A stretch of DNA of 64,000 nt. Origin: Octopus vulgaris (lineage: Eukaryota). Where the stretch lies: the NCBI GenBank assembly GCA_951406725.2, contig OX597831.1, forward strand, positions 52,886,001 to 52,950,000, read 5' to 3'. Positions within the stretch are counted from its first letter, which is position 1. The number at the start of each line of letters is the position of its first letter. A program made the translations under genes and the position numbers. The notes under the pieces were generated by a model. That model saw only the letters and a list, made by a program, of their open reading frames with translations. It was not told the origin of the DNA and searched no databases. This document shows, piece after piece, positions 11,787 through 30,390 of the stretch.

Positions 11787-12116
<330 letters not shown>

Positions 12117-12419
12117 TAGAACACAAAAGGCCAAGACAAACACCACAAACTACCACCATTGATTGCTACTTATTTTAAAACCCCACAAAAATGACTTCAG
12201 CAGGATTTGAACTCGGTGCACAGAGAAGCATTACAAATACTTCATGTTATTCTATCCAATGCCCTAAAGCCTGCCAATCACTACCTCATCAATCCATTAC
12301 ACTCATACCATGTATTGCAGTTTTGATTTCACTGTACAGCAGATCTATTCAACTAGACATTTTTCAATTTGAATCAGGTTCCCACCAAAACAGTTTACTA
12401 AAGGTGTTAAATATTATCA

Positions 12420-12641
12420 TCATTATTTTAATGTCCACTTTTCTATGTGGACATGGGTTGGATGGAATTTGTTGAAGCAGATTTTCTTCAGCCAGATATC
12501 CTTCCTGTTTCCAAATGAGGTAATATTTCCCCATGACTAGTTATGTTTTCACAGAAGATTGGAAACAAAGGACACCAGTTGGATGACAGTGGCACTCATT
12601 TACAACTGTCATGTGATATCAATACAAGGAGACAGTAATAT

Positions 12642-12702
<61 letters not shown>

Positions 12703-12855
12703 TACATACAATGGGCTTCTTTTCAGTTTCTGTCTATAAAATCCACTCACCAGGCTTTAGTCAGCTTGGTACTATAGTAGAAGACACTTGTTCATAGTAC
12801 CACAAAGTGGGACTGAACCTAAAAACCATTTTTCACACGGCCACACCTGTGCCTA
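12420..12855 (-). mobile_element. CORE-type SINE with RTE-like tail (family B')
   Basis: Same head as family B. Tail aacccatg..gaaaagtggacattaaaat(gat)n on the minus strand. Confidence 0.75.
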
Positions 12856-12931
12856 TTCTGAAATTTAATGCCTGAATAAATCAGGGAAATTCATCCAGTT
12901 TAAGTTGTAAAAAAGAATACATACATATATA

Positions 12932-13310
12932 GGCGCAGGAGTGGCTGTGTAGTAAGTAGCTTGCTTACCAACCACATGGTTCTGGGTTCAGTCCCACTGC
13001 ATGGCACCTTGGGCATGTGTGTTCTACTATAGCCTAGAGCCAACCAAAACCTTGTAGACGGAAACTGAAACATATATATATATATATGTACACATATGTG
13101 TATGTGTGTCTGTGTTTGTCCCCCCCCCCCAACATTGCTTGACAAAACGATGCTGGTGTCATTATGTTCCCATAGCTTAGTGGTTTGGCAAAAGAGACCA
13201 ATAGAATAAGTACTAGGCTTACAAAGAATAAGTCCTGGGATCAATTTGCTTGACTAAAGGCAGTGCTCCAGCATCGCTGCAGTCAAATAACTGAAACAAA
13301 TAAAAGAATA
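12932..13310 (+). mobile_element. Full-length CORE-type tRNA SINE (family B)
   Basis: ggcgcaggagtggctgtgtagtaag (A-box), gggttcagtcccac (B-box), CORE-like accttgggca, internal microsatellite, 3' module. Other copies: 5500-5860(-), 15215-15525(-), 30970-31280(-), 34290-34500(-), 39750-40125(+), 46195-46560(-), 49295-49690(-), 49870-50270(+), 50820-51165(-), 53345-53700(-), 54200-54600(-). Confidence 0.88.
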
Positions 13311-13514
13311 TAAATATGAAAATAAATTCTCACTGAAATATACCTAATTAAAAATCTTTGGTTTCTTGATTTCTAAACTTTTTCCAGCTAAAACATTTAA
13401 TCTTCTTTGATCATGTTTGCTTTCGAGAATAATTGTTTAACTGTTTTATCTTTATTATGAGAAAAATTCATACGACTTAATTGTTAAGCATTTTAATATT
13501 TGTAGTTCTCATGA

Positions 13515-13720
13515 AGCAGAGAACTGGCAAAATCGTTAGCACGCTAGACAGAATGCTTAGTGGCATTTCATCCAATTTTACATTCTGGGTTCAAATTCTG
13601 CCAGGATTGACTTTGCCTTTCATCCTTTCAGTACTAGTTGAGCACTTAGGCCAAAGTAATCGACTTACCTCCTCCTCCCCCGAAATTGCTGGCCTTGTGC
13701 CAGAATTTGAAACCAATATT
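13515..13720 (+). mobile_element. tRNA-derived SINE family A (other + copies at 14935-15112, 19620-19825, 26538-26750)
   Basis: ctggcaaaatcgttagcac (A-box), gggttcaaattc (B-box), tail ggccttgtgccagaatttgaaacc. Confidence 0.8.
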
Positions 13721-16167
13721 TGTAGTTCTCATACAGCTGTGAGAAACTTCATTCTTTTCTCACATCATTTGTTTAAACATGTTAGTAAATACTTCCCACT
13801 TTCTTTTTATGTGATAGTTACTTTCTTATATGTTTTATTCTCATTGTCATCTTTTATTGATTATATTTCCATTAACCCATTGTGTGACACCTTGGGCAAG
13901 TGACTTCTACTACCACTCCAGGCTGACCAAAAGCTTGTGAGTAAATTTGGTAGGCAGAAACTGAAAGAATCCCAGTGTGTGTGTGAGAAGTGGTGTCTTC
14001 TTGTCTTGACATCACATAATTATTATAAACAAATGTCATACAGTCCTATGCATCCATTTCTATTATAGTCATTGCTTATTGATAAGTTCAATTGATTTTT
14101 TGCTACCATATAAATATATAATGGATGACTGATTGATTTAAAGTGCTTCAAACAAATATTCTGTCTACTACAATCTTCAAATATAAATACCAATTCCAAC
14201 TCTATATTATGAGTGATTCTTTTGCATTTATTGTCTGAAAACATGGTACATCATTTCGTTTTTAATCATCATCATCGTCACCATTATCATTTTACTGTCC
14301 ACTTTTCCATGATTGCATGGGTTGAACAGAGTTTATTGAGACAGGTTTTCCATGGTGGGATATCCTTCCTGGTTCCAGGCAAGGTATTTCCCCATAGCCA
14401 GACATGTTTTCACAAAATACTGGAAATGAATGACATTCATTTACTATTTACACAGTGTCAAGTCAAGAAGACACAAACATATACACACACATACATATGT
14501 GTATACACACAAACACACATATATATAGACGAGTTTCCATATAGTTTTCATCTACCAGATCCACTCACAAGGCTTTGGCCAACCTGGGACTATAGTAGAA
14601 AACACTTATCTAAGATGTCACATGGTGAGACTGAACCCAAAACCATGTGGTTGGGAAGCAAACCTCTTATGCCTGCTCCATAAACATTTTCAATGTTTAA
14701 CTGAGGTGATCATTAAAAGAATGCTCAAAATTATGTGGTAAGCAGTTATTTCTAGAATGTCACCATGGTATTGCTAGGTATTGGAATCAAATCTTAGACA
14801 AACAAGTTCCACTATGTCATCTGTTTGAAGATATTTTACTTCACTCTTCTCTTTTGATATTGGCAAATTCTCATCAAATGAATAAGGATTTCTTTAACAT
14901 TTTATCTCTTAATATATGAATTAGCTCAAGACCGCAAAGTGGCAGAATTGTTAGCACGGCAGGTGATATGCTTAGCAGCATTTCATCCATCTATACATTC
15001 TGAGTTTAAATTCCACTGAGGTTGACTTTGCCTTTCATCCTTTTGGGGTTGATGTAATTAACTTAGCCCCTCCCCCGAAATTGCTGGCCTTGTACCAAAG
15101 TTTGAAATCAATATATAAGTTAGCTTCTTTATTACCATTCATTCTATTTGTCAAAATGGTATATTGCATATGAGGTAATGTATGGCGATGAACAAAAGAA
15201 TGTATATCTTTTATCTTTTACTTGTACAGTTATTGTACAGTACACCACCTTGAAGTGTTTAGTCAAAGTGACTTTGGTACTTATTTTGAAGTCCGGTACA
15301 CTAAGTTATGGAGATGTAAACAAACTAACATCAGTTGTCAAGTGGTGGTGGAACACACAAATGATGGGCTTCCACTCAGTTTCAGTCTACCAAATCTGCT
15401 CACAAGGCATTGGTCAACTCAGAGCTGTTGTAGAAGACACTTACCCAAGGTGCTGCACTGTAGGAGTGAACCCAAAACCACTTGGTTGCAAAGCAGACTT
15501 CCTAACCAATCAGTGCCTATACCTATATCATATATATTCTGTTGTTCTTGCTTTTATTACAAATATTCATCTATATTTTCAGTCATCAGAAATAGACTGA
15601 CTTACAAAAAATCTGATAGTTGGAATAAAATATTTTAATGTTCTGTTGAGCCTTTAATAGTTATATTGTCCATAAAAGCAGGGAACCATCAGAAGTATTA
15701 TTAAATTACTTATATTATGTAGATCAATGGTTTTCCATTGGGATCCACATAAGATTTTGTTGTTAAAATTTATGTGCAACAAATTGGTCATATTTCTACA
15801 ATATACAAAATATTTAAACAATTTTATACAATTCCTCATAACATTAATCATAAAAATTTAATAGTTTTTAGACATTGAATGCCTATGAGGGTTTCCCCTC
15901 CACACAGGGGTAAAATAGGAATCAAAGGGGTCCATAGATAAAAAAAAATGGTTGAGAACCACTGATTTAGATACATCCATTTAGACAAGATTGAATTGTT
16001 TTGCCTTTTTATCATTTATTTCATGAACCCATAATTAATTGCAGTTCCTTGAACTGCATCTTTCTCCTATAGGAAAATGGTTGTTGCCCATGTATAAAAA
16101 AAAGCAATAATTGTATTCTTCAGAACACCATCAGACAATCTTTTGTCAACCACTAATATTATATTAA

Positions 16168-16377
<210 letters not shown>

Positions 16378-16621
16378 TGATGGGTTTCTGAAAAATATTT
16401 ATCCCCACTTAGATGTGGATGTTCTGTTAGATACCAGGTATCTGGTAGATACCACAAGCGAAACTCTCATTTTGGCTTTTGGTGCAGTCAAGCAGCCATC
16501 ATTGACAACACCAAGGTTGGTCAAAAGTTGTGTGATCTGATGATCTTGGCACAAGAGATGTCTCCTCGCTGGTGATATAAGCAAGAGTACATTTTGCACA
16601 AAAAGGCAATATGTGAGTTTC

Positions 16622-16760
16622 TTACATTATTTACATTTGACGGATATTCATCCTCATCTTGTTTGTTGTTAACACGTTTCAGCTGATATACCCTCCAGCC
16701 TTCATCAGGTGTCTTGGGGAAATTTCAAACTTGGGTTCTCATTCCTAAGGTATTTTTCTC
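16622..16760 (-). mobile_element. Penelope-like repeat remnant with a degenerate hammerhead (16671-16713)
   Basis: Minus strand GACAC-CUGAUGA-A-GGCUGG(AGGGUAUA)UCAGCU-GAAAC-GUGUU. Core and stems I/II are present but there is no NUH triplet. Confidence 0.55.
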
Positions 16761-17449
16761 CATAATTGCCCATGGGCATGTAAAAAACCAGAAAAATAAT
16801 CCAGAATCCTTGTCCAGTACCTGATCGATCCCAATGGTAGTCATGGAATGTGAAGGTGGGTGTTTGTAATGCTGTGTGTATGTCGTCTGCAGTGGGAACA
16901 GGGACAGTTTTCTCTATGAAGGCCTTTTTTAGTCAATCTATTGATATAGTGTCTTTATGACCATTAAGGTCTATAGTAAAAAATTTATCTGTGTGTAAAA
17001 GAAAATGGAAAGGACTTGCATACGGTGCTGTTAACAGAGGCTTAACAACATCGTTGCACTCAAAAACGCAAGTCCAAGAAGTAAAGTTTCCTTCGAGGCA
17101 GAGCTAGAAATGCAAGTAAGTCAGAGGTTTTAAACAGGAGCAATATATTCAAAATTGGTAAAACTAAAAATTGTCAAGGATAAATTAAATTTATTATTGT
17201 TACTGAATATATTAGTGTTATTTAGTTTCTGAATGGTTTTGCTGTTGTTTGTTTATGTAGTTTGATTTCTTTATCCATCAGTTTCTACTAAGATAGAGAC
17301 ATGAATAAAATCAATAATAGCAAAAGGAAAATAAAACTTTGGAAACAGCAATGCCATCATAACTTATATGGAAACCAAGAGTGTGCTTTCAAGGGAGATA
17401 ATCAGAGAAAGACTTGAAAGTAAACGTAAGATTATAATACTTTATGTAA

Positions 17450-17645
17450 ATAATCCAGAGAATCCTTGTCCAGTACTGGATTGATCCCCAAATCTAATCA
17501 GTTTGTGCCAGTCATGAGGCCAAACATCCCTGAAAGTTTCATCCGAATCCATCCAGTGTTTCTTGAGATATCTTGTCCACAGACAAACAAACAAACAAAC
17601 ACAACTGAAAACAATACCTCTGCCTTCGCTAAGGCAGAGGTAATA
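17450..17645 (+). mobile_element. Helentron-associated (HINE/DINE-1-like) 3' end
   Basis: (ACAA)n microsatellite followed by a terminal hairpin tacctctgcctt-cgct-aaggcagaggta (17615-17642). The motif aatccttgtccagtac also occurs near 16805. Confidence 0.55.
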
Positions 17646-18531
17646 ATCATGTTGTTTTTGTGGGTGGGTTGTTTTTTTGGCAGTAATGTCCATTTTCTTT
17701 GGATAAGTGTTACAAAACAAATGTTAGTAAAAGAAATGGACTCAAATTTGGTTGAAATGACCCTAGCTTATTACTGGATACCTTACGTTGCTTGCATTAT
17801 TAAAAAAAATTGTAATTTATTACTGAGAAAATCTCTGCATTTTCACAATTTTATAACCCAAAATTCATTTTACATTTACATCTGGGTCTTAATAATGATC
17901 ATATTTAGGGAATTCCCACACCTTAAATTTTGAACTGAATGACTTTCAACAAATGAATCAGCTTTTGAGTTTATGTACTTCATGTGGTTTTATTTTGATT
18001 CTTCTCTAATAGAAATAGAGGAGCTGTTGCCTTTATGTACATTGTTTCTTTTCCCCTAATTGTTAGGTTTACTTAAAATGCTATATTTAGATATTTATTT
18101 TACATGTAATTAAAGGCAATAATATAAAATATGATTTTATTGGTGTCACTTTTTACATAAATTCTACTTTGAAGTCTCTTTAATTTGTTTTCTTCATTTT
18201 TTTTTTTTTAACTGAGTCAGACATGCTAGATTCCTTAAAGATATATGTTCAACTATACACCTAAGCCATTCAATTAATGCAATACTTGTACTTTTGTTAG
18301 CACCCACAACCTCTTTTGTGAGATATATGAAGCTATGAATAACCTCATGCATTGTTATGTGCTGTCAGCTATGAATAACAAATTTTTCTTTCACAATCCT
18401 ATTTTATTCACAGTTTCTTTGTGTAGCTTAAGTTTGTTTATTCCATGCATGTCTACAAATATAACTTATTCGCTGTTCTTACATATAATAACTATCATAC
18501 CCATAAGGCTTTGAAGAATGGATTCAGCATT

Positions 18532-18575
18532 TGTAGCTGACGATGCCCAACATGCAGAAATGCATGCATCCTATG
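18532..18575 (+). ncRNA. Minimal type I hammerhead ribozyme with canonical core, in GOT1 intron 3 (sense)
   Basis: UGUAG-CUGACGA-UGC(CCAACAU)GCA-GAA-AUGCAUGCAU-C^CUAUG: stems I, II and III pair, all core residues are present, AUC cleavage triplet (cut after 18570). Confidence 0.7.
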
Positions 18576-19156
18576 GTTCTTGAGTTATCTTTGAATGGGT
18601 GACTTGGTGTTAATACTTGCAAGAAAGTGGACTCTGCTAAAGGCACCCTAGGGCCAGGCAGTGGTGTTAAATCTTATTCAAAAGCTCAAGTTACTATCCA
18701 AACACAGCTATAGTCCATGCAACTTGCTTCTGTAAAGTTTCCATTTACCTAATTTCACTCACAATGCTTAGAACAGCCTTGGTCAAGGAACCACACAATG
18801 GGATTGAACCTGGAACCATGTGATTATGAAGCTAATTTATTTATCATAACCACATAGCCATGCTTTGTGTTATATGGAAACAAAGGAAATATAATCTCTT
18901 AATTTATACTTAGTTAGAAAAATGATGTATATAATCTCTAAGGAAACAATTTTTCATTAGTGTTCAGCTATTGTACTCAAGCAAAATAAAAATCTGAATT
19001 AATGTGGTGGACAAAAAGAAAACAAAATTATTTCTTTTATAAATATAGTTGCTTTTTATTTATTTCTATTCCAAACTCGTTCAGAAAGCTTTTGAACAAA
19101 TTCTTTTAAGACTCTTTATAAACTAGAGCCTCTTGGTTGTCTGGCTACTTTTTTTC

Positions 19157-19187
<31 letters not shown>

Positions 19188-19507
19188 ATAACCTAGAATT
19201 TTTCATATCTTTACTCTTAATAATTACCTTGATAATTTATCCTTACTTCTGCTTCAAACTTTCACAGCAATAACATGACTGGACAGGACAGTCTGGTTAT
19301 TGTTGTTTCACTTCCATGACTAGTACTACTGCATTTCCCATTAATATAAATTACTCTTATCTTCTTAAATTTGTTTTTATTCTTAAATCATTCATCTAAA
19401 CAGACATTGTTACTAACTTTACCTAAACTGTTTTTTATATATTTCAGTTTCCATCATACTAAATTTACTCTAAGTTTTAGTTTTCATTTTGCAACTTCTT
19501 GAAATTT

Positions 19508-19509
19508 AA

Positions 19510-19574
<65 letters not shown>

Positions 19575-19612
19575 CATTATTATTAATAATCATTATTAAT
19601 TATTATTAATTA
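19508..19612. repeat. (TAA)n followed by (TTA)n trinucleotide microsatellite
   Basis: Directly visible; the arrangement is self-complementary. Confidence 0.9.
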
Positions 19613-19927
19613 TTTACTGCAAGTTGGCAGGGTCGTTAGCATGCCAGGCAAGATCTTTAGTGGCATTTTGTCCATCTCTGTTTTCTGAGTTCAAATTCCA
19701 TCAAGGTCTACTTTGCTTTCATCCTTCAGGGATCGACAAAATAAGTAGTAGTTTAGTACTGGAGTCGCTGTAATCAACTAACCCACTTCATCAAAGTTGC
19801 TGGCCTTGTGCCAAAATTTGAAATAATTACTACTACTACTACTATTAGTACAGAATTAATCCTGAAGAACAGACATAGAATCATTAATGTTTTGATGAAA
19901 ATTTACAAAGCTTCTTTTATTATTCAG

Positions 19928-20040
19928 GAAACCACAAGGGTGTCTACATGGCTGCTGGCTTTACCAACGTCAAAGAGTACCGATATTGGGATGCTCAAAC
20001 CAGAAGCTTAGATATTAATGGCATGGTTGAAGATCTTAAT
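19928..20040 (+). CDS. GOT1: GOT1 coding exon 4 (113 bp)
   Basis: attcag| ... |gtaaga. (G)NHKGVYMAAGFTNVKEYRYWDAQTRSLDINGMVEDLN; phase matches the neighbouring exons. Confidence 0.96.
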
Positions 20041-20436
20041 GTAAGATATTTTGCTTATTATTATGATTATGAAAATAACATTTTCTTTGGCAGAATCGAG
20101 AAAGAATTAGTGTCTTCATTTTTTTCATTTGATAGTTGGAAATAATTGTCACTGTCATACAAGCAGAGTCATTCTTTCCCAATATTCTGGTGACTGGAAG
20201 GACATCTGCCTCAATAAATTCTGTCCAACCCATGCAAGCATAGAAAAATGGACATTAAAAAAATGATAATGATGTGGTCGAATATCTCTGGTTTCAGTCT
20301 CAAAATTTGTTTGGTAAATGTTTTAACTTCAATTCAGCCTACCTTGCTTCATTGAAAATAAATACCAGCATCATTTTGTAGCAGTGGTTGACACTTTGAA
20401 AGAAATCTACACAAAATTACCTCTTAGAGAAATTCC

Positions 20437-20855
20437 AGGCACAGGCATGGCTGTGTGGTAAGAAGTTTGCTTCCCAACCACATTGTCTCAGGTTCAGTCC
20501 CACTGCATGGGACCTTGGACAAGTATCTTCTATTATAACTTCAGTTTGACCAAAACCTTGTGAGTGGGTTTGATAGATGGAAACTCAAAGGAAACTATTG
20601 TGTGTGTGTGTGTGCACGCACATGTGCTATTGTCTCTTTGCCTTGACATTGTGTGATAGTTATAAATGAATAGCACCATCACGCAAGCAGTGTCCCTCAT
20701 TTCCAGTCTTTCATAAAAAACATGTCTGGTCATGGGGAAATATTACCTTACTTGGAAACAGATGAGGGCTGGTAACAGGAAGGACATCCAGCCATAGAAA
20801 AACCTGCCTTGACTAATTCCATCCAACCCATGCAAGCATGGAAAAGTGAACATTA
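20437..20855 (+). mobile_element. Full-length SINE family B' (others at 22540-22930, 23400-24230 nested, 27100-27510, 47725-48130(-), 51770-52230)
   Basis: tRNA/CORE head plus ggggaaatattacctt.cttggaaacagg..aggaaggg catccagcc..aacccatgcaagcatggaaaag tail. Confidence 0.82.
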
Positions 20856-21017
20856 AGAAATAGGGGGGTAACCCATAATGCCTAGATTTCTGCAGGGGTG
20901 TGAATGTTTACAGAAAAAATTTACCACTATATGCATGTTTTGGGGAATGTGAAAGGGGTTAACTGATGCTATTCAAATGAAATAAAATCATTATGCATCC
21001 ATGTATATTCTTAATAT

Positions 21018-21357
21018 GTGGAGGCATATGGCTCAGTGGTTAGAGTGTTGGGCTCACAATCATGAGGTGGTGAGTTTGATTCTTGGACCAGGCTGGGTAT
21101 TGTGTTCTTGAGCAAGTTACTTTATTTCATTTTGCTCCAGTTCACTCAACTGTAGAAATGAGCTGCAATGTCACTGGTACCAAGCTGTATCGGCCTTTTC
21201 CTTTCCCTCAGATAACATCAGTGGTGTGGTGAGGGGAGGCTGGTATGCATAGGTGACTACTGGTCTTCCATAAACAACATGGCCCAGACTTGTGCCTCAG
21301 AGGGTAACTTTCTTGGTGCAATCCCATGGTCATTTATGACTAAAGGAGGTCTTTACC
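21018..21357 (+). mobile_element. tRNA-derived SINE family D (related copies at 22172-22450(+) and 51300-51635(-))
   Basis: tggctcagtggttagagtg (A-box), gagtttgattc (B-box), central gtgttcttgagcaag..ctttatttca domain. Confidence 0.8.
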
Positions 21358-21648
21358 TATATACTTAATATTTTGTTTGTAACTTCTCTAAATATTAAAC
21401 ATTTGAACAATAACAGACCAGCTACCTAATAAAGTCAAGTTTTTATTAATGGTCTTCTTTATATTTTTTATCTTTGTTGTGATTTATTTCAGAAGTTTTT
21501 ACACCTATTCTGCATCAGATAAATAATTTTATTAATAATTCCAAATTGAGATTTGGCTTAAGCCATTCTCAATATTTTGTAAGATCTTTCTTCTCAGATA
21601 TAACTTCATATGGCAAAGATACTAAAAAGGTGTTGTGGGCTGAGATAA

Positions 21649-21879
<231 letters not shown>

Positions 21880-23004
21880 TGAAACGGTCAAAATATTAAT
21901 GAAAATAAAATTAGAGACCAACAAAAACTAAGGACAGTTTATATCAAGTAAAATCAGATAAGATTCAAAGGTGTCACAAGAAGATAGTGAATACTATATA
22001 ATGTCTTTTGTAGGCTTTTCTTTGGAGAAGATAAGAAAACTGTCAGACTTCCCATATCTTCCCCAAAGGAGAGTTCTGTCATATGCAGAAGGATCCACCT
22101 CTCCTTATCACAGCACCGTCTTATTCCATTTTGTGACCTGCATTTTTGAATACACACACATCACACACTAAGTATGGCTTAATGGTTAGGGTATTCAGCT
22201 CATAATTGTAAGGTTGTGAGTTCGATTCCTGGTGACATGTTGTGTCCTTGAGCAAGATGCTTTATTTCACATTGCTCCAGTCCACTGATCTGGCAAAAAT
22301 GAGTTGAACCTGTAATTCAATAAACCAGCTTTGTCACATTCTGTCTGTCACACTAAATCTCCCTGAGAACTATGTTACAGGTAGACATGTCTGTAAAGTG
22401 TTTGGCCACTAGTAAGTTAATTTTGCCAGCAGGCTGTTCCATTAATCAGATCAGTTGGAACCCTTGTCCTTTTTTTTATTGCTGATTTTGAATAAAAGAT
22501 CAAACTATGATTTAATTCCAAAGTGATTACCTTTCATAATTAAGAAGCTTGCTTCCCAAACACGTGGGCTCTGGTTCTGTTGCACTGGGTAAAACCTGGG
22601 CAAGTGTCTTCTACTATAGCCCAAGCTGACCAGAGCCTTGTGAGTAGATTTGCTAGGTAGAAACCAAAAGAAGCCCATCATGTGTGTATACCCTAGTCTA
22701 GATATCATGTGGTGTTTGTAGATGAGCATCATTGTCCTACAAGCAAGATTAGTTCTTTCAAATCTTTCATGTAAAACAAGTCTGGTAGCATGAAAATAAT
22801 ATACCTTGCTTGGAAACAGGTGAGGGTTGATGACAGCAAGGGCATCCAACCATAGTAAATCTGCCGCAACAAAATTCATCTAACTCATGCAAGCATGGAA
22901 AAACAGATATTAAATGATGATGATGATGACAACAACAGTATCTGGCTGTAGAAAATCTGCCTCCAAAAATTGTCTGCCCCATGCAAGTATGGCTTAGTGG
23001 TTAG

Positions 23005-23304
<300 letters not shown>

Positions 23305-24442
23305 TAACTGGTAAACATTCTGCTATTTTCAATAATGATATATATCTGTGGAACTGCTATTTCCATATTTTCTGTAATATAATAGATACATATATTGACA
23401 CAGGCGTGTTTGTGTGGTCGAGAAGCTTACTTTCCAACCATGTGGTCTTGGTGCAGTGCCACAGTGTGAAACTTTGGGAAAGTGTTGTCTATTATATAAC
23501 CCTCAGTTGTTGAGCTTCATGGAGGCAATGCCAAGTTAGCAAGACTTCTGATATTTTGTTGTGCTTGAAAAGATATGTCAAGCTAAGTGAATCATGGTCA
23601 TTTCCAGTGCCAGTGACACATGTAAAGTACCCATGCTAGTGCCACTTTGAAGAAATCCAGGCCTGTGACACATAAAAGACACATGTAAGAAACAGTCAGT
23701 ATGCTCTGTAAAGTGGTTGGCATTAGGAAGGGCATCCATCCATAGAAACCAAGCCAAAACAGACGACTTGAGCCTGGTGCAGCATTCCAGCTTACCAGTT
23801 CTAGTCAAACTGTCTAACCCATACCAGCATGGAAAACATGTTAAATGATGATAATGAGGACAAAGCCTTGTGAGTTAGTTAGTTAGTTAATTTTTTGGCT
23901 CAAAAAGCAAAAGAATTTGGATGATGGAAACTGAAAGGAAACCTATCATATATGTATCTGTATACATGTGAGGATTTGCACGTGCCCTTGTCTTGACATT
24001 ATGTGTTGATTGTAAATGAGCATCACCATCATACAAGCTTAATTGTTTGTATCTAGCATTCAGTGAAAAATATGTCAAATCATGAGGAAATATAACCTTG
24101 CTTGGGAACAAGTGAGTGAGTGTTGGCAACAGGAAGGGTATCCAACCGTAGAATATCTATCTCCTCAAATTCTGTCTGACCCATGCAAGCATGGAAAAGT
24201 GAGTGTTAAATGATGAGGAGGATGATGGCGACAACAACAATGACCACTCAGTTGAATTTTAGTAAAGATATATTCATTTTAGATTGTTATAATTATCTTA
24301 CATGTAACATTAGTAATTATTACTTGACATATAGATATATTATGATGAAACCAGTTGTGATCATAGCTACTCCTAAATAATGTTATAATCAGAGAAAAAA
24401 ATTATGGTTTTGATATGCCCTTTTTTTTTTTTTTTAACCTAG

Positions 24443-24608
24443 ATGAACGTATCGGAAACCTAGTCCTTGTCTGTAATACTACCAATGCCATGGAGCGATG
24501 CAGTTCCCAGCTGGAAATCATTGTGCGGCGTATCTGGTCCAACCCCCCTAATCATGGGGCACGTGTGGTTGCTACTGTCTTGAACAACCCTTCATATTAC
24601 AACGAATG
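24443..24608 (+). CDS. GOT1: GOT1 coding exon 7 (166 bp)
   Basis: Poly-T tract then acctag| ... |gtaagt. (N)ERIGNLVLVCNTTNAMERCSSQLEIIVRRIWSNPPNHGARVVATVLNNPSYYNE(W) contains R266, R292 and the cytosolic-type WSNPP. Confidence 0.97.
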
Positions 24609-24856
24609 GTAAGTCAGATCAATGCAAATGGTCTTCTTCGGTGGGTAGAGTACCATAGAGTAGAAGGAAATCTTCACACAAATTTTATAAGACCACCATA
24701 GTTTATGGGGTAAACAAATAGGAAATAACAGTTGCTACCCAAGAACATAAATCATGTTACATAGTGTAATCTAGGACAGTTGTATCTGTAATTCCTAAAA
24801 AAAAGTCTCAAAATTTCTGGAGTGCCCTTCATATATTGTGTTCTGTCTCTCTTTAA

Positions 24857-25063
<207 letters not shown>

Positions 25064-26268
25064 TAGCTTACATTATAAATGAAAATAACATAATAAATTA
25101 TTAGGTCGGGTATTTACCTTTGATTTTTGGTTTTTTACTTGTTACAGTTATTGAACTGTAACCATGGCCACCTCCTTGAAGGGTTTAGTACTTATATTGG
25201 TTTTCTTTACTGAACCACTAAATTACAGTGATGTAAACAAACCAACACCACATTATTTTCACTTAATCATGCATTATCTCAGAACTTCAAGATTATGATG
25301 TTGTGATTTTATATTTATAGAATAACATTGTAGGGTAGGTGTAAGAGGCCAGATCTGGCCAGTTTGGATGTAAAACAGGTACAATATTTGGGCCAGATAC
25401 AGCCAGTTTAAATGCCAAAGAGTTAAATGTTAAAGCTTTAAACCCAAAAGCGTATGGTTGTAAACTGAGTTTCTAAACCACACACCCATAATTAATACCA
25501 TGAAACCAGAGCTGGGCCATTTATGGCTTAGAAGGTGGAATTAAATACATATTTTGTGCATAAATATGTATAGCTGTGCAGGTATTTATGTGTATATCAA
25601 TGTGATTACACTGTATAACAAAATTTTTATTTTTTTTTTTATCTTTGGTCATTAAGTGTTATTTCCTATTTGCTTCTATCAAGAAATCAAAGGAAATGAC
25701 TACTATTTCTTGCAAACTTTGCTTTTAATGATATGGACATCAATGTTTTGAAAACTGACTTATTTTCCATTGCATTTCAGACCGATCTAGTGCTTAGTTG
25801 CTGAAGCAGAATATCATTATAGCAAATATTCTCGCTCAATACCACAAATTTGCTTGTCAGTTGCTTGACCTTAACCACTTGAGCATGTCCCTTATTGGCT
25901 GACAATATGTGCATCTCTGAATAGTGGAAGAGCATCATAGCCATTATTGAGGGGGATTCTTTGGGGTTTGAATAAATATCAACAAAAGCAAAGTTTGAAG
26001 GAAATATTAACCATTTTATATACTTTCTGGGGGTAAGCAAATAAGAAATAGCAGTTGCTACCCAAGGACAAAAATCGTGTTAGACAGTGTTATCAGTCAC
26101 ATAATTAAGAATATGATTTCATAACATCTTACAGAATGTTTTCAGTGGAATTTCTTGCTTTTTTTGTTTTTTCTCCTTTAATAAATTGCTTTCGTGTTAT
26201 AGATTGTGATGCTTAATAAAAAAAAAAATTTTTTTGAAAAAACTTTTCAATTCTTTTTCTTCTTCCAG

Positions 26269-26402
26269 CAACTCAAGTTGACAAGATGGTTAAGAAATTC
26301 CACATCTATTTAATTAAGCAAGGACGAATAAACATGTGTGGCCTGAATAGCAGCAACTTAGATTATGTAGCGAGTGCAATCTACGATGTTGTTGTGAACT
26401 AG
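26269..26402 (+). CDS. GOT1: GOT1 last coding exon 9 to stop (134 bp, TAG at 26400-26402)
   Basis: ttccag| then (P)TQVDKMVKKFHIYLIKQGRINMCGLNSSNLDYVASAIYDVVVN*, containing GRIN (R386). Exons 2-9 join into one open frame of 367 codons. Confidence 0.96.
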
Positions 26403-26819
26403 CCAGGAGAAAATAAACTTTAGGTATATTTCAATTTCTCTTTTTCCCCAAATATTATATAAAATAAAAAGATATTGTGCTGTATTGTTTAAAGAGGATA
26501 ATTAAATTGATTATTAATATTTTGTTGTTGATTGAGCAGCAAGCTGGCAGAATCATTACTGTACCAGGCTAAATACTTAGCATTTTGTTCATCTTTACAT
26601 TCTGAGTTCAAATTCTACCAAGGTTGACTTTAGCTTTCATTCCTTTTGAGGTCAATAAAAGAAGTACCAGTTGAATACTGGAGTCGATGTAATCTACCTA
26701 ACCTTTCCCACTGAATTGCTGATCTTGTGCCAAAATTTGAAACCAATATTTTGTTGTAGATTGGCAGAATACCTTATGGTATTTTGTTACAATTTTTTAC
26801 ATTCTGAGTTCATATCACA

Positions 26820-29100
26820 GAGTTTGGGTGCTTTTTACGTGCCACCGGCACAGGTGCCAGGCAAGGCTGGCAACAGCCACGATCGGTTGGTGCACGTAAA
26901 AAACACCACCGATCGTGGCCGTTGTCAGCCTTGCCTGGCACATAAAAAGCACCCACTACATTCATGGAGTGGTTAGCGTTAGGAAGGGCATCCAGCTGTA
27001 GAAACACTGCCAGATCGGACTGGAACCATCCAACCCATGCTAGCATGGAAAACCGACATTAAATGATGATGATGATGATGATGATTAACTACTGGACTTG
27101 TGTGGCTGTGTGATTAAGAAGCAAAGCTTCCCAACTACGTGCTCTTTGGTTCAGTCCCACTGCACAGCACTTTGGGCAAGACTTCTACTAGAACCCTGGG
27201 CTGACCAAAGCTTTGTGATTAGATTTACTAGAGGGAAACTAGAGGCCCATTATTAATATACATGTGCGTGTGTGTGTGTGTTGACATCATATGATGGGTG
27301 TAAATGAGCATCCCTGTCATACAAGCAATGCTGATTGTTTCCAGTTTTCCATGAAAATATGCCTGGCTATGAGGAAATATTACCTTGATGAAAAACAGGA
27401 AAGGATTGGTGACAGGAAGAGTATCTGGCTGTAGAATATCTGCCTTGACAAATTCTGTCTCACCCATGCATGCATAGAAAAGTGGACAGTAAATGAGGGT
27501 GATGATAATGATATAATCAACTATACCCATCATGAAATTTGAGCCCTTCTGCCTCTTTTATAAATCTTTATTTGTATATCCCAGATTTAAATTATGTAGT
27601 CTATATTCTTATGTAAGGGGTGACTAAAAGGGTCAGCAACTAGAAGAGAATCCAGCTGTAAAATACTGCCTCAAAATGTCACATCCACTCCATACCAGTG
27701 TGAACACATGCACATAAAAATTATGGTTAAGAAGTTCACTTCCCAGCTGCATGGTTTCAGGCTCACTTTCACTGCACAGTACCTTGGGCAACCTCTTCAA
27801 CTATGGCTCCAGGTGAACCAAAGTGAGTGGATTTGGTAGACACAAACATGCAAGTTGTGTGTGTGTATATGTGCTTATATCTGCACTTAAGTCCTGAGAT
27901 TTGAACAATATTGTTGTTGGTACTTCTGTCAATGATTCACCCACTTGCTTCATGCCTTCAAAGTCACATGGAATAAAAAATATTCCTTATTTGGAAAACA
28001 GGTAAGGGTTAGAAGGTTAGTGTCAATTAGGGTAGCCAGCTACATCAATAACATTTGTCCAAAGCACGTTGGACCTCACGGAGGAGATGACTAGGGCCCA
28101 AAACTTCTGGCAGTTTGCTGTGCTGGAGAAGACACATCAAGCTAAGTGAAATTGTGGCTATTCATACATACAGGCACTTCCTTTGTGTCTCGCTATCAGC
28201 TGTGAGATGTAAAAGCACCAGTGCCAGTAACGCATAAAGTACCCAAGCATTCATGCCAGTGTCACATAAAAGTGCCTGTGTCCGTCATCATCATCATCAT
28301 CATCGTTTAACGTCCGCTTTCTATGCTAGCATGGGTTGGACGGTTCAACTGGGGTCTGGGAAGCCCGAAGGCTGCACCAGGCCAGTCAGAGCTGGCAGTG
28401 TTTCTACAACTGGATGCCCTTCCTAACGCCAACCTCTCCGTGAGTGTAGTGGGTGCTTTTTATGTGCCACTGACACAGGTGCCAGACAAGGCTGGCGAAC
28501 GGCCACGCTCGGATGGTGTTTTTTATGTGCCACTGACACAGGTGCCAGACGAGGCTGGTGAACGGCCACGCTCGGATGGTGTTTTTTTTTATGTCCGTGT
28601 GACATTAAAAGTGCCCAGTACATTCTGTAAAGTGGTTGGTGTTAGGAAGGGCATCCAGCTGTAGAGACCATACCAAAACAGACAAAAGGTGCTCAGGCAG
28701 CTCTCCAGCTGGCCATCTTCTGTCAAACTGTCCAGTCCATGCCAGCATGGAGGACGGGCGTTAAATTATGATGATAATGTTTTGGAAAAATAGACATAAA
28801 CAAATGTATATAGACACAACATACATACAACCGGCTTTAATAAAGTTTCTGTCTCTTAAATTTCTCTCACAAAGCTATGGGCAACCCAAGGCTACTGTGG
28901 AAGGCGTATCGCCTAACTGGCCCTCATGCTGGTGGCATGTAAAACACCCACTCAGTGTGGCTGGTGTTAGGAAGGGCATCCAGCTGTAGAAACTCTGCCA
29001 AATCAGATTGGAGCCTAGTGCAGCCATCTGGTTCACCAGTCCTCAATCAAATCGTCCAACCCATGCCATGGAAAGCAGACGTTAAACGATGATGATGATG
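26820..29100. mobile_element. Cluster of SINE family C/B' pieces in both orientations, some with internal tandem units of about 55 bp
   Basis: aaaagcacccactacac..ggagtggttggcgttaggaagggcatccagctgtagaaac..(gat)n at 26940-27085(+), 28285-28600(-), 28605-28780(+) and 28935-29100(+). Confidence 0.75.
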
Positions 29101-29760
29101 ACAATTTGCCCAAAGTGCCTTGCAATGGGAACAAACCAGAAACTCCATGTAGTTGTGAAACAAACTTCTTAATCTCATAGCCATGGCTGTGCCTATCTAT
29201 ATTTAATAATGATAATGGTTTCAAATTTTGGCACAAGGCCAGCAATTTCAGGGGAAGAGTAAATCAATAACATCAACCCCAGTTGATGAAAGGCAAAGTC
29301 GACCTCAGCAGATTTTGAACTCAGAATGTAAAGATGAACAAAATGTCACTAAGCATTTTGCCTGGCATGCTAACAATTCTGCCATCTCACTGCCTTTATG
29401 ATTAATGGAAATAATAAAGAATTTGGAGAGGTTAAGTTTAATAGGTAACTTTGCTATTATTAAGCTAGTGTTTAGAATAAAAGTTTTTATGAAAATTTTC
29501 AATTTAAATATGAACATTTGTATCATAGAACTAGTAACCAGAATGATATTAGAATAGTTAATGAAAAATTTTGTGTGCCATCTGTATTAAAAGGTTAATT
29601 GTTGAGATCTATATGCAGTTGTTGTTTCAATCAATCCAGGTTGGCTTTAATGAAACAAACTTTTATTTCACTATTCCTTTTCATATTGTGTTTTATTTTG
29701 ACTTATCCCCTACATTCGTAATATATCACCATTCTTTTTTTTTATCTATATATTTTTCAG

Positions 29761-29980
29761 ATATATGCTGAGAATGAAGTTAAGAATACCTTCAAACTAA
29801 AAATATCAGTTTGATAGTGTTAGTATATTTAGAATTGATGGTTTGATTTTAATTTTTGTTTTGGAAATGAGCTGTCAGTTGATGGTAAATTTGTAAAAAT
29901 GTGTCCACACACACACACACACAGATTTTTATGGAACTCTATTAAATGTGTTAAATAAAGGTTATTAACAATTAAGGTTT
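29761..29980 (+). other. GOT1: Putative non-coding terminal 3'UTR exon of GOT1
   Basis: Strong pyrimidine tract ending tatttttcag| at 29760, apparently non-repetitive AT-rich sequence, AATAAA at 29954-29959, and a candidate donor AG|GTATAT at 26423/26424. Confidence 0.5.
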
Positions 29981-30390
29981 TATTCAACTTTAGGGTATAG
30001 GGGGGGGGGTCCCAATCTTTTCACCAATTTAACCAGGCTTAAAGTAATGATAATGCTATATTTCGTAAAAGCTATTAGGCAGATTAACCCTTTTGTTACT
30101 GTATTTATTTTAAGATACATGTGTTTCCTATTGAAGTTATCAAGCCCAGATATAGTTATATCTGGGCTGATGATTTTAACCAAATCCAACTATTTTAAAG
30201 AAAAGGTAGATTTGAAGACTTCAATTGATTTTGGAAATGGTCAACCAGATTTAAGGTACATGATGAAATAAGAAAATGGGACATTGATGGCGAAAATCTA
30301 TCAACACAATCTGAGCAAACTCAGAAGTGGCTGTAGTATAGTGCAACATTTGATGAACTTGTCCAAGAACATAATGTTACAGCTGATTGA

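Follow-up and report, generated by a model that had tools for sequence, protein, structure and literature searches.

The GOT1 locus and its transcript

The window, that is, the whole 64,000-nucleotide stretch of Octopus vulgaris DNA analysed here, contains eight of the nine coding exons of the gene for GOT1, the cytosolic aspartate aminotransferase. The gene and the features at its end are as follows.

G000:C18:52885230-52885349: GOT1 exon 1, about 650 bases upstream of the window start (genome search with P0122)
11793..26402, + strand: GOT1 coding exons 2-9 (tblastn of P0001 on the window; genome search with P0122)
26269..26423, + strand: last coding exon (exon 9), with 44 codons' worth of coding sequence, the first stop, the six-codon tail and the second stop; X1 and X3 contigs match 26269-26429, and their loose ends match exon 8 and the exon at 29761
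26400..26402, + strand: first stop TAG, context AAC TAG CCA G, unchanged in X1, X3 and X20
26403..26420, + strand: six in-frame codons (PGENKL) that, by their alignment register, are likely the ancestral C-terminal PTS1 tail
26405..26406, + strand: alternative acceptor AG of the annotated O. vulgaris isoform P0123, absent from the aligned contigs
26412..26417, + strand: AATAAA hexamer over the N-K codons; the main transcript does not use it as its poly(A) signal (contigs splice past it)
26421..26423, + strand: second stop TAG, likely the ancestral stop and also the exonic part of the splice donor TAG/GTATAT
26424..29760, + strand: 3' UTR intron adjoining the second stop, rich in dispersed repeats
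29761..30110, + strand: non-coding last exon, its 3' end roughly placed by the lengths of the contigs, with ATTAAA at 29941 and AATAAA at 29954

The genome search revealed a single copy of GOT1, and the 43-residue peptide of its last exon is 100% identical to the Octopus protein 'aspartate aminotransferase, cytoplasmic-like'. The sole other GOT1-like locus in the genome is 41-44% identical and is taken, from its sequence, for GOT2; GOT1 itself shows full-length homology and is a single-copy orthologue separate from the mitochondrial paralogue. Neither a second GOT1 copy nor a duplicated last exon with a direct PTS1 was found in the genome search, and no N-terminal PTS2 was found in the open frame upstream of the start.

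The coding sequence ends in GAT GTT GTT GTG AAC (…YDVVVN) and is followed at 26400-26423 by TAG CCA GGA GAA AAT AAA CTT TAG, that is, by PGENKL between two stops in frame with the last coding exon, with C as the base after the first stop, as the initial annotation had read it. Contigs of four of 22 public runs (X1, X3, X19 and X20) were aligned to 26110-26497, X19 without coverage of the exon. In X1 and X3, RNA-like contigs join exon 8 to 26269, cross both stops and continue into 29761; thus the tail is present in the mature mRNA, in which a PTS1-type tripeptide and a second stop follow the first stop in frame. The second TAG constitutes the final three bases of the exon (TAG/GTATAT), a point missed by the initial annotation, and isoform P0123 can be built only with a donor right behind this TAG and an acceptor at 29760. 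Since the main transcript passes through the AATAAA at 26412 and is spliced, this hexamer is not its main poly(A) signal; the caveat that had been attached to the hexamer is weakened, and the hexamer was rejected as the cause of the conservation of the tail. Stops less than 50-55 bases from the last junction should escape nonsense-mediated decay, and with no more than 21 bases between either GOT1 stop and that junction, neither should trigger it.

Three organism labels share the first TAG, two through RNA-like contigs and the third through a DNA contig, and it is at this residue that the annotated proteins from O. sinensis, O. vulgaris, O. bimaculoides and Argonauta end; this agreement between contigs of three labels and four annotated proteins indicates that it is no assembly error.

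Isoform P0123 drops 118 bases within exon 9 (26289-26406; ATG/GT … CCAG/G) and reads the tail out of frame; it lacks the invariant R380, its junction is not in the aligned contigs, and its product is probably non-functional. That splicing adds the tail to the protein, through a phase-1 donor joined to the acceptor CCAG/GAG at 26406 to give …ENKL and the stop, appears very improbable. The acceptor is in use in P0123, and exon 8 ends in phase 1, its junction with 26407 being in frame with ENKL. However, P0123 reads the tail in the other frame (EKINFRY…), the exon 8 join would lose most of exon 9 including R380 and leave a dead enzyme, no contig starting at 26407 was found among the contig ends listed, and the genome has no duplicated last exon. 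The 3' UTR intron is mostly repeat between 26498 and 29418, with as many as ~20 overlapping matches to other parts of the window.

Among the 7558 stop-to-stop segments of the window (both strands), 34 end in a broad PTS1 tripeptide (4.5e-3), where "broad" denotes a permissive PTS1-like pattern of our own, and three consist of exactly six codons ending in KL (4e-4). Because such six-codon KL segments are so rare, the GOT1 tail is unlikely to be a product of chance.

Correspondence with the C-termini of other GOT1 proteins

Among the best 120 of 3245 homologues of the C-terminal part, nine have canonical and 23 broad PTS1 endings. An alignment of 40 sequences revealed that the octopus X-PGENKL lies without gaps on FPDDSKL of Patella, FPEDPKL of Lottia, VKDDPKL of Owenia, IGDDPKL of Lingula and Lamellibrachia, IQEDPSL of Anneissia and VCEDPKL of Asterias; IRDDPKL is a further seven-residue tail in this alignment. 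A length of exactly seven residues past octopus N404 is the commonest among the PTS1-like tails (8 of 24, the octopus not counted), and four further tails end in ENKL at six residues past N404. The first TAG falls in a column that is hydrophobic (F, I, L or V) in the other GOT1 tails, and the codons behind it are homologous to the coding ends of outgroups in both the alignment and the tree.

The window counts and this gapless alignment agree with the earlier description of the tail as a non-random PTS1-like sequence. A coincidental origin, with the tail as ordinary UTR that owes its sequence to a poly(A) hexamer and a splice donor, is the least probable of the readings considered: AATAAA and TAG/GT do overlap the tail, but the tail has the exact ancestral length, the Pro and acidic positions and the KL-stop (chance about 4e-4), and the main transcript is not cleaved at the 26412 hexamer. 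This reading is largely refuted by the alignment with other GOT1 tails.

A maximum-likelihood tree of 48 rows, hand-picked for taxonomic spread, showed a broad PTS1-like ending in 17 of the 24 non-cephalopod rows of the lophotrochozoan clade versus none of the seven cephalopod rows, and a tree of 150 rows showed PTS1-like endings in none of the 14 rows of the cephalopod clade. The starred, well-supported branches of the 48-row tree force at least eight gains or losses of the PTS1 label, and thus the GOT1 tag is labile. The xKL endings of many invertebrate GOT1s suggest that dual targeting of this enzyme is widespread outside vertebrates.

Squid-type GOT1s continue past the octopod stop residue with I/L-P/S-x-x-Q-A and then end without a tag (LSPEQA, IPSDQA, IPTKQA or IPA in P0003, P0004, P0005 and P0131). 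These protein ends suggest that coleoids can do without the GOT1 tag, and the final QA or PA may reflect a splice signal or another hidden tail. Four squid-type members carry an N-terminal extension of 11-12 residues that starts with MCC or MYC. The Haliotis rufescens isoforms P0034 and P0133 differ in their last-exon sequences and end in VPSKL and DAVTNV, respectively, and dual targeting of Haliotis GOT1 via alternative last exons is possible; among the members listed in the clusters of ten other invertebrates, alternative C-termini were found in Haliotis only (15 of 38 members listed for the oyster).

A metagenome scan for animal GOT1 with 3' DNA covered 10 of the 64 parts of the collection and kept 80 of 552 loci, none of which was cephalopod-like (best 61% identity). 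Including that of the window, the 81 loci comprised five direct PTS1-like ends, no canonical hidden ones and three broad hidden ones, namely the window and two mitochondrial-type or doubtful cases. Two animal-like GOT1 transcripts of the metagenome, L005 (near 1250-1330) and L006 (near 1260-1340), contain TGA-C followed by 16-18 codons that end in KILTV(D/E)F-TAG, and the peptide is kept despite several synonymous differences; this extension looks like conserved readthrough, not PTS1. The fungal-like loci L009, L014, L028, L029, L031 and L045 end in CAG or AAC TAG AT, possibly as a splice donor overlapping the stop.

Divergence, stop context and editing

Divergence of the tail was read from X20, in which one DNA contig (depth 13.1) of a relative about 94% identical covers the exon and both flanking introns. 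In exon 9 of X20, three changes are synonymous and one, D>A, is shared with the O. bimaculoides protein P0124. In the tail, T>A at 26419 turns CTT into CAT and the terminal Leu into His (NKH), and both stops and the frame are kept; thus, of what the initial annotation had proposed to look for in relatives, the frame and the second stop held, whereas a conserved [SAN]KL ending failed in this one informative divergent relative. The tail differs from that of the window at 1 of 21 sites and the introns at 14 of 223 sites plus four indels; the tail count is thus as expected under neutrality, in a comparison that has low power with one relative and whose sole tail change removes the Leu. Among the 63 possible single changes of the tail, 24 would abolish even a very broad PTS1 signal. 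As read from a single contig of a single run, NKH may be polymorphic in that relative, with one allele sampled, or may be a loss confined to its lineage. X3, which bears another organism label and is nearly identical, has an unchanged tail and one listed exon difference.

The proteins differ at 10 positions between two Octopus species and at 57 from Argonauta, and scaling the intron divergence by these differences gave, by hand arithmetic, about 18% per-site neutral divergence on the octopus lineage since the Argonauta split, which a calibration table brackets by ~46 and 101 Ma (PMC7104719). At d = 0.15-0.2, about 19-29% of neutral tails would escape loss of the signal, fewer with indels and more with constraint on the exon end from the splice donor. 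If the stop was one event, this lineage has preserved frame, length and KL-stop for at least the time that has passed since the Argonauta split. The X20 change and the low odds of neutral survival roughly cancel each other as arguments.

The context of the GOT1 stop is UAG-CCA-G, without the UGA-CU(A) readthrough motif, whose UGA-CU core was described by Stiebler et al. (PMC4207609), and no stimulatory structure was found downstream of the stop, where the local fold is no better than that of shuffles (z = 0.47). MDH1 of the same genome (L090, G000:C16, ~52348340) ends in GAA TGA CTG TTT GAT CCT AAA TTG TAA (LFDPKL), by its sequence a textbook UGA-CU readthrough extension whose end is PTS1-like. 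NADP-IDH (IDH1; L108, G000:C5, ~128146780) reads ATA TGA CTC … GAG AGT AAA TTA TGA, that is LGRFKPITESKL, with a canonical SKL, and is a better readthrough candidate than GOT1; the second IDH of the genome has a TAA stop and no PTS1 tail. With the coefficients of Schueren et al. (PMC4359377), a human regression model that is weakly predictive (r = 0.34), the LINiter scores of GOT1, MDH1 and IDH1 were 0.14, 0.40 and 0.54, and their LINfs3 ranks among 192 contexts were 26 (top 14%), 10 and 4, respectively. A human TAG-CAG context was measured at 0.13%, near background (PMC4359377, Table 1). The C at +4 and the CCA-G after the GOT1 stop would be there because the Pro codon was inherited, and this, together with a context weaker than those of MDH1 and IDH1, tips the balance towards a relic. 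In the search for cytosolic MDH, at least six intronless frames of 399 codons (L082-L087; G000:C17, 67.2-79.9 Mb) gave a weak profile match (87 bits) and may form a multi-copy dehydrogenase-like family.

UAG is the triplet favoured by ADAR, and its conversion to UIG, read as Trp, under tissue or temperature control would restore the ancestral tail in a regulated share of the transcripts and place a hydrophobic residue in the hydrophobic column. A pairing partner might, in principle, lie in the adjacent intron, and pipelines for cephalopod editomes treat stop-loss UAG>UGG editing as real (PMC8382921). Such a switch is nevertheless scarcely more credible than the splicing route. The X1 and X3 contigs have A at 26401 and no A>G, in a type of assembly that drops minority variants and leaves low or tissue-restricted editing invisible. 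The best duplex partner for the stop region between 23000 and 31000 reached -28.9 kcal/mol, a value surpassed for 13 of the 15 control exon segments, and the fold was no better than that of shuffles, so that the computed searches, like the earlier inspection by eye, gave nothing above controls, with room left for short imperfect duplexes. No protein ending in WPGENKL was found among the 5 + 120 matches listed and the 16 cephalopod cluster members, the X20 tail reads NKH, and no AATC/GOT1 entry was found in the accessible part of the editing-site supplement of PMC8382921.

Probable origin of the tail and possible peroxisomal GOT1

The basis for a relic is observed: the register of the tail matches other GOT1 ends, the stop is common, at the protein level, to three Octopus species and Argonauta, an intron follows directly behind the second stop, and X20 has changed Leu to His. 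We consider it rather probable that the tail is the ancestral C-terminus of GOT1, left in the 3' UTR when a nonsense change arose, and probably no longer under selection. A hydrophobic codon just before the conserved Pro would have become TAG in the octopod stem lineage, for which TTG>TAG would need one change, and octopod GOT1 would thereby have become cytosolic only. The tail would have survived through the slow divergence of octopus DNA and through an exon end that doubles as a splice donor, and any readthrough would be the basal level of a UAG-C stop, not maintained by selection. A relic is likelier than a working switch because a close relative has changed the last residue of the tag.

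A selected weak readthrough is a serious alternative, though we regard it as distinctly less probable. Here a constitutive PTS1 would have been turned cryptic by the nonsense change, with a recent loss in a bimaculoides-like lineage. UAG-C is decoded as Gln, Tyr or Lys on readthrough; a fraction of a percent of ribosomes would do so, PEX5 would bind NKL and import a few GOT1 dimers, and the imported enzyme and MDH1 made by readthrough would together run a peroxisomal malate/aspartate shuttle. Given the textbook readthrough tail of MDH1, a peroxisomal malate shuttle able to use GOT1 is plausible; a hidden PTS1 is likewise present in IDH1 of this genome. The tail is intact, in the ancestral register and, in the nearly identical X3, unchanged, with a neutral survival probability of only about 0.2-0.3 or less; in X20, however, its terminal Leu is His. 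The context ranks in the top 14% of LINfs3 in the human model and is not poor, but it is UAG-CC instead of UGA-CU and lacks downstream structure (z = 0.47), and the human TAG-CAG stop was measured at only 0.13%, near background (PMC4359377, Table 1). For LDHB, readthrough of about 1% is enough, and for IDH and MDH1 an alternation between direct and readthrough PTS1 across taxa is published (PMC4207609); abalone GOT1 isoforms occur with and without SKL (P0034, P0133), whereas squid-type GOT1s end in QA or PA without a tag. The idea of the initial annotation that the extension is currently expressed is not supported: the Leu is lost in X20, the two RNA-like contigs lack A>G at 26401 (a weak test), no editing partner was found and the context is weaker than UGA-CU.

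That GOT1 may be peroxisomal, as the same annotation supposed, is plausible: related GOT1s end in such tails, and a published table lists the peroxisomal location of Drosophila Got1 as experimental (PMC7477296). Yeast and plants have an aspartate aminotransferase in their peroxisomes, the loss of which caused no beta-oxidation defect in yeast (PMC5133446). The statement that NKL is a peroxisomal ending in AGT is supported, since NKL supports AGT import (PMC2120593), and the change NKF>NKL strengthened a cryptic yeast targeting signal (PMC4526572), which underlines the weight of the last tail residue. The earlier reservation about an acidic residue before NKL can be dropped; an acidic residue before xKL is the norm in GOT1 tails, MDH1 and IDH1. 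The accessible parts of PMC7693074 and PMC8919083 contain nothing on GOT1 readthrough, those of the text and supplements of PMC4207609 report no readthrough GOT1 isoform, and the mostly open-access literature searched yielded no account of GOT1 with a hidden PTS1 or of PTS1 readthrough in cephalopods.

Like MDH1 and LDHB with their readthrough PTS1 (PMC4207609, PMC4359377, PMC5133446), octopus GOT1 is a cytosolic redox-shuttle enzyme with a short extension, a PTS1-like end, a second stop and C as the next base. In contrast to their UGA-CU(A), a PTS1 kept across species and measured readthrough, octopus GOT1 has UAG-CC, a last residue that differs in a close relative and a readthrough that is putative; the tail resembles, but does not yet qualify as, a readthrough-derived cryptic PTS1. 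NADP-isocitrate dehydrogenase has its PTS1 at the regular end in mammals and fungi and behind UGA-CU in Drosophila (Stiebler 2014), and the octopus IDH1 is of the hidden form. The likeness lies in a PTS1 that certain lineages read in frame and others carry behind a stop; unlike IDH, GOT1 in its hidden form lacks the leaky motif, and no earlier report of it was found.

With directly tagged GOT1s, such as yeast Aat2p (PMC6099311, PMC5133446), Drosophila Got1 (PMC7477296) and the xKL-ending GOT1s of Patella, Lottia, oysters, mussels, annelids, Lingula and sea stars, octopus GOT1 shares the enzyme and a tail that is homologous and in the same register. The octopus tail is split from the protein by a stop, and the localisation of the molluscan and annelid GOT1s is predicted from sequence. 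Nonsense-truncated C-termini are alike in having old coding sequence behind a newer stop, with a coding-like signature; Jungreis et al. exclude nonsense substitutions because a downstream coding signature can arise from them in the absence of readthrough, and find that readthrough is lost more often at TAA and TAG (10.1101/051557). Unlike that class, the octopus stop is not very recent, being common to Argonauta at the protein level, and the survival of the tail is less trivial.

If weak readthrough were true, a single animal genome would hold three hidden peroxisomal enzymes, GOT1 besides MDH1 and IDH1, and a peroxisomal malate/aspartate shuttle would become testable in octopus; an editing switch, if true, would place the organelle address of an enzyme under the control of RNA editing. 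If the tail is a relic, as we favour, it would date the loss of peroxisomal GOT1 in octopods and warn that a PTS1 behind a stop can be inherited coding sequence, not programmed readthrough. Whether relic or weakly read through, it would be a small, clean case of an organelle address lost or hidden.
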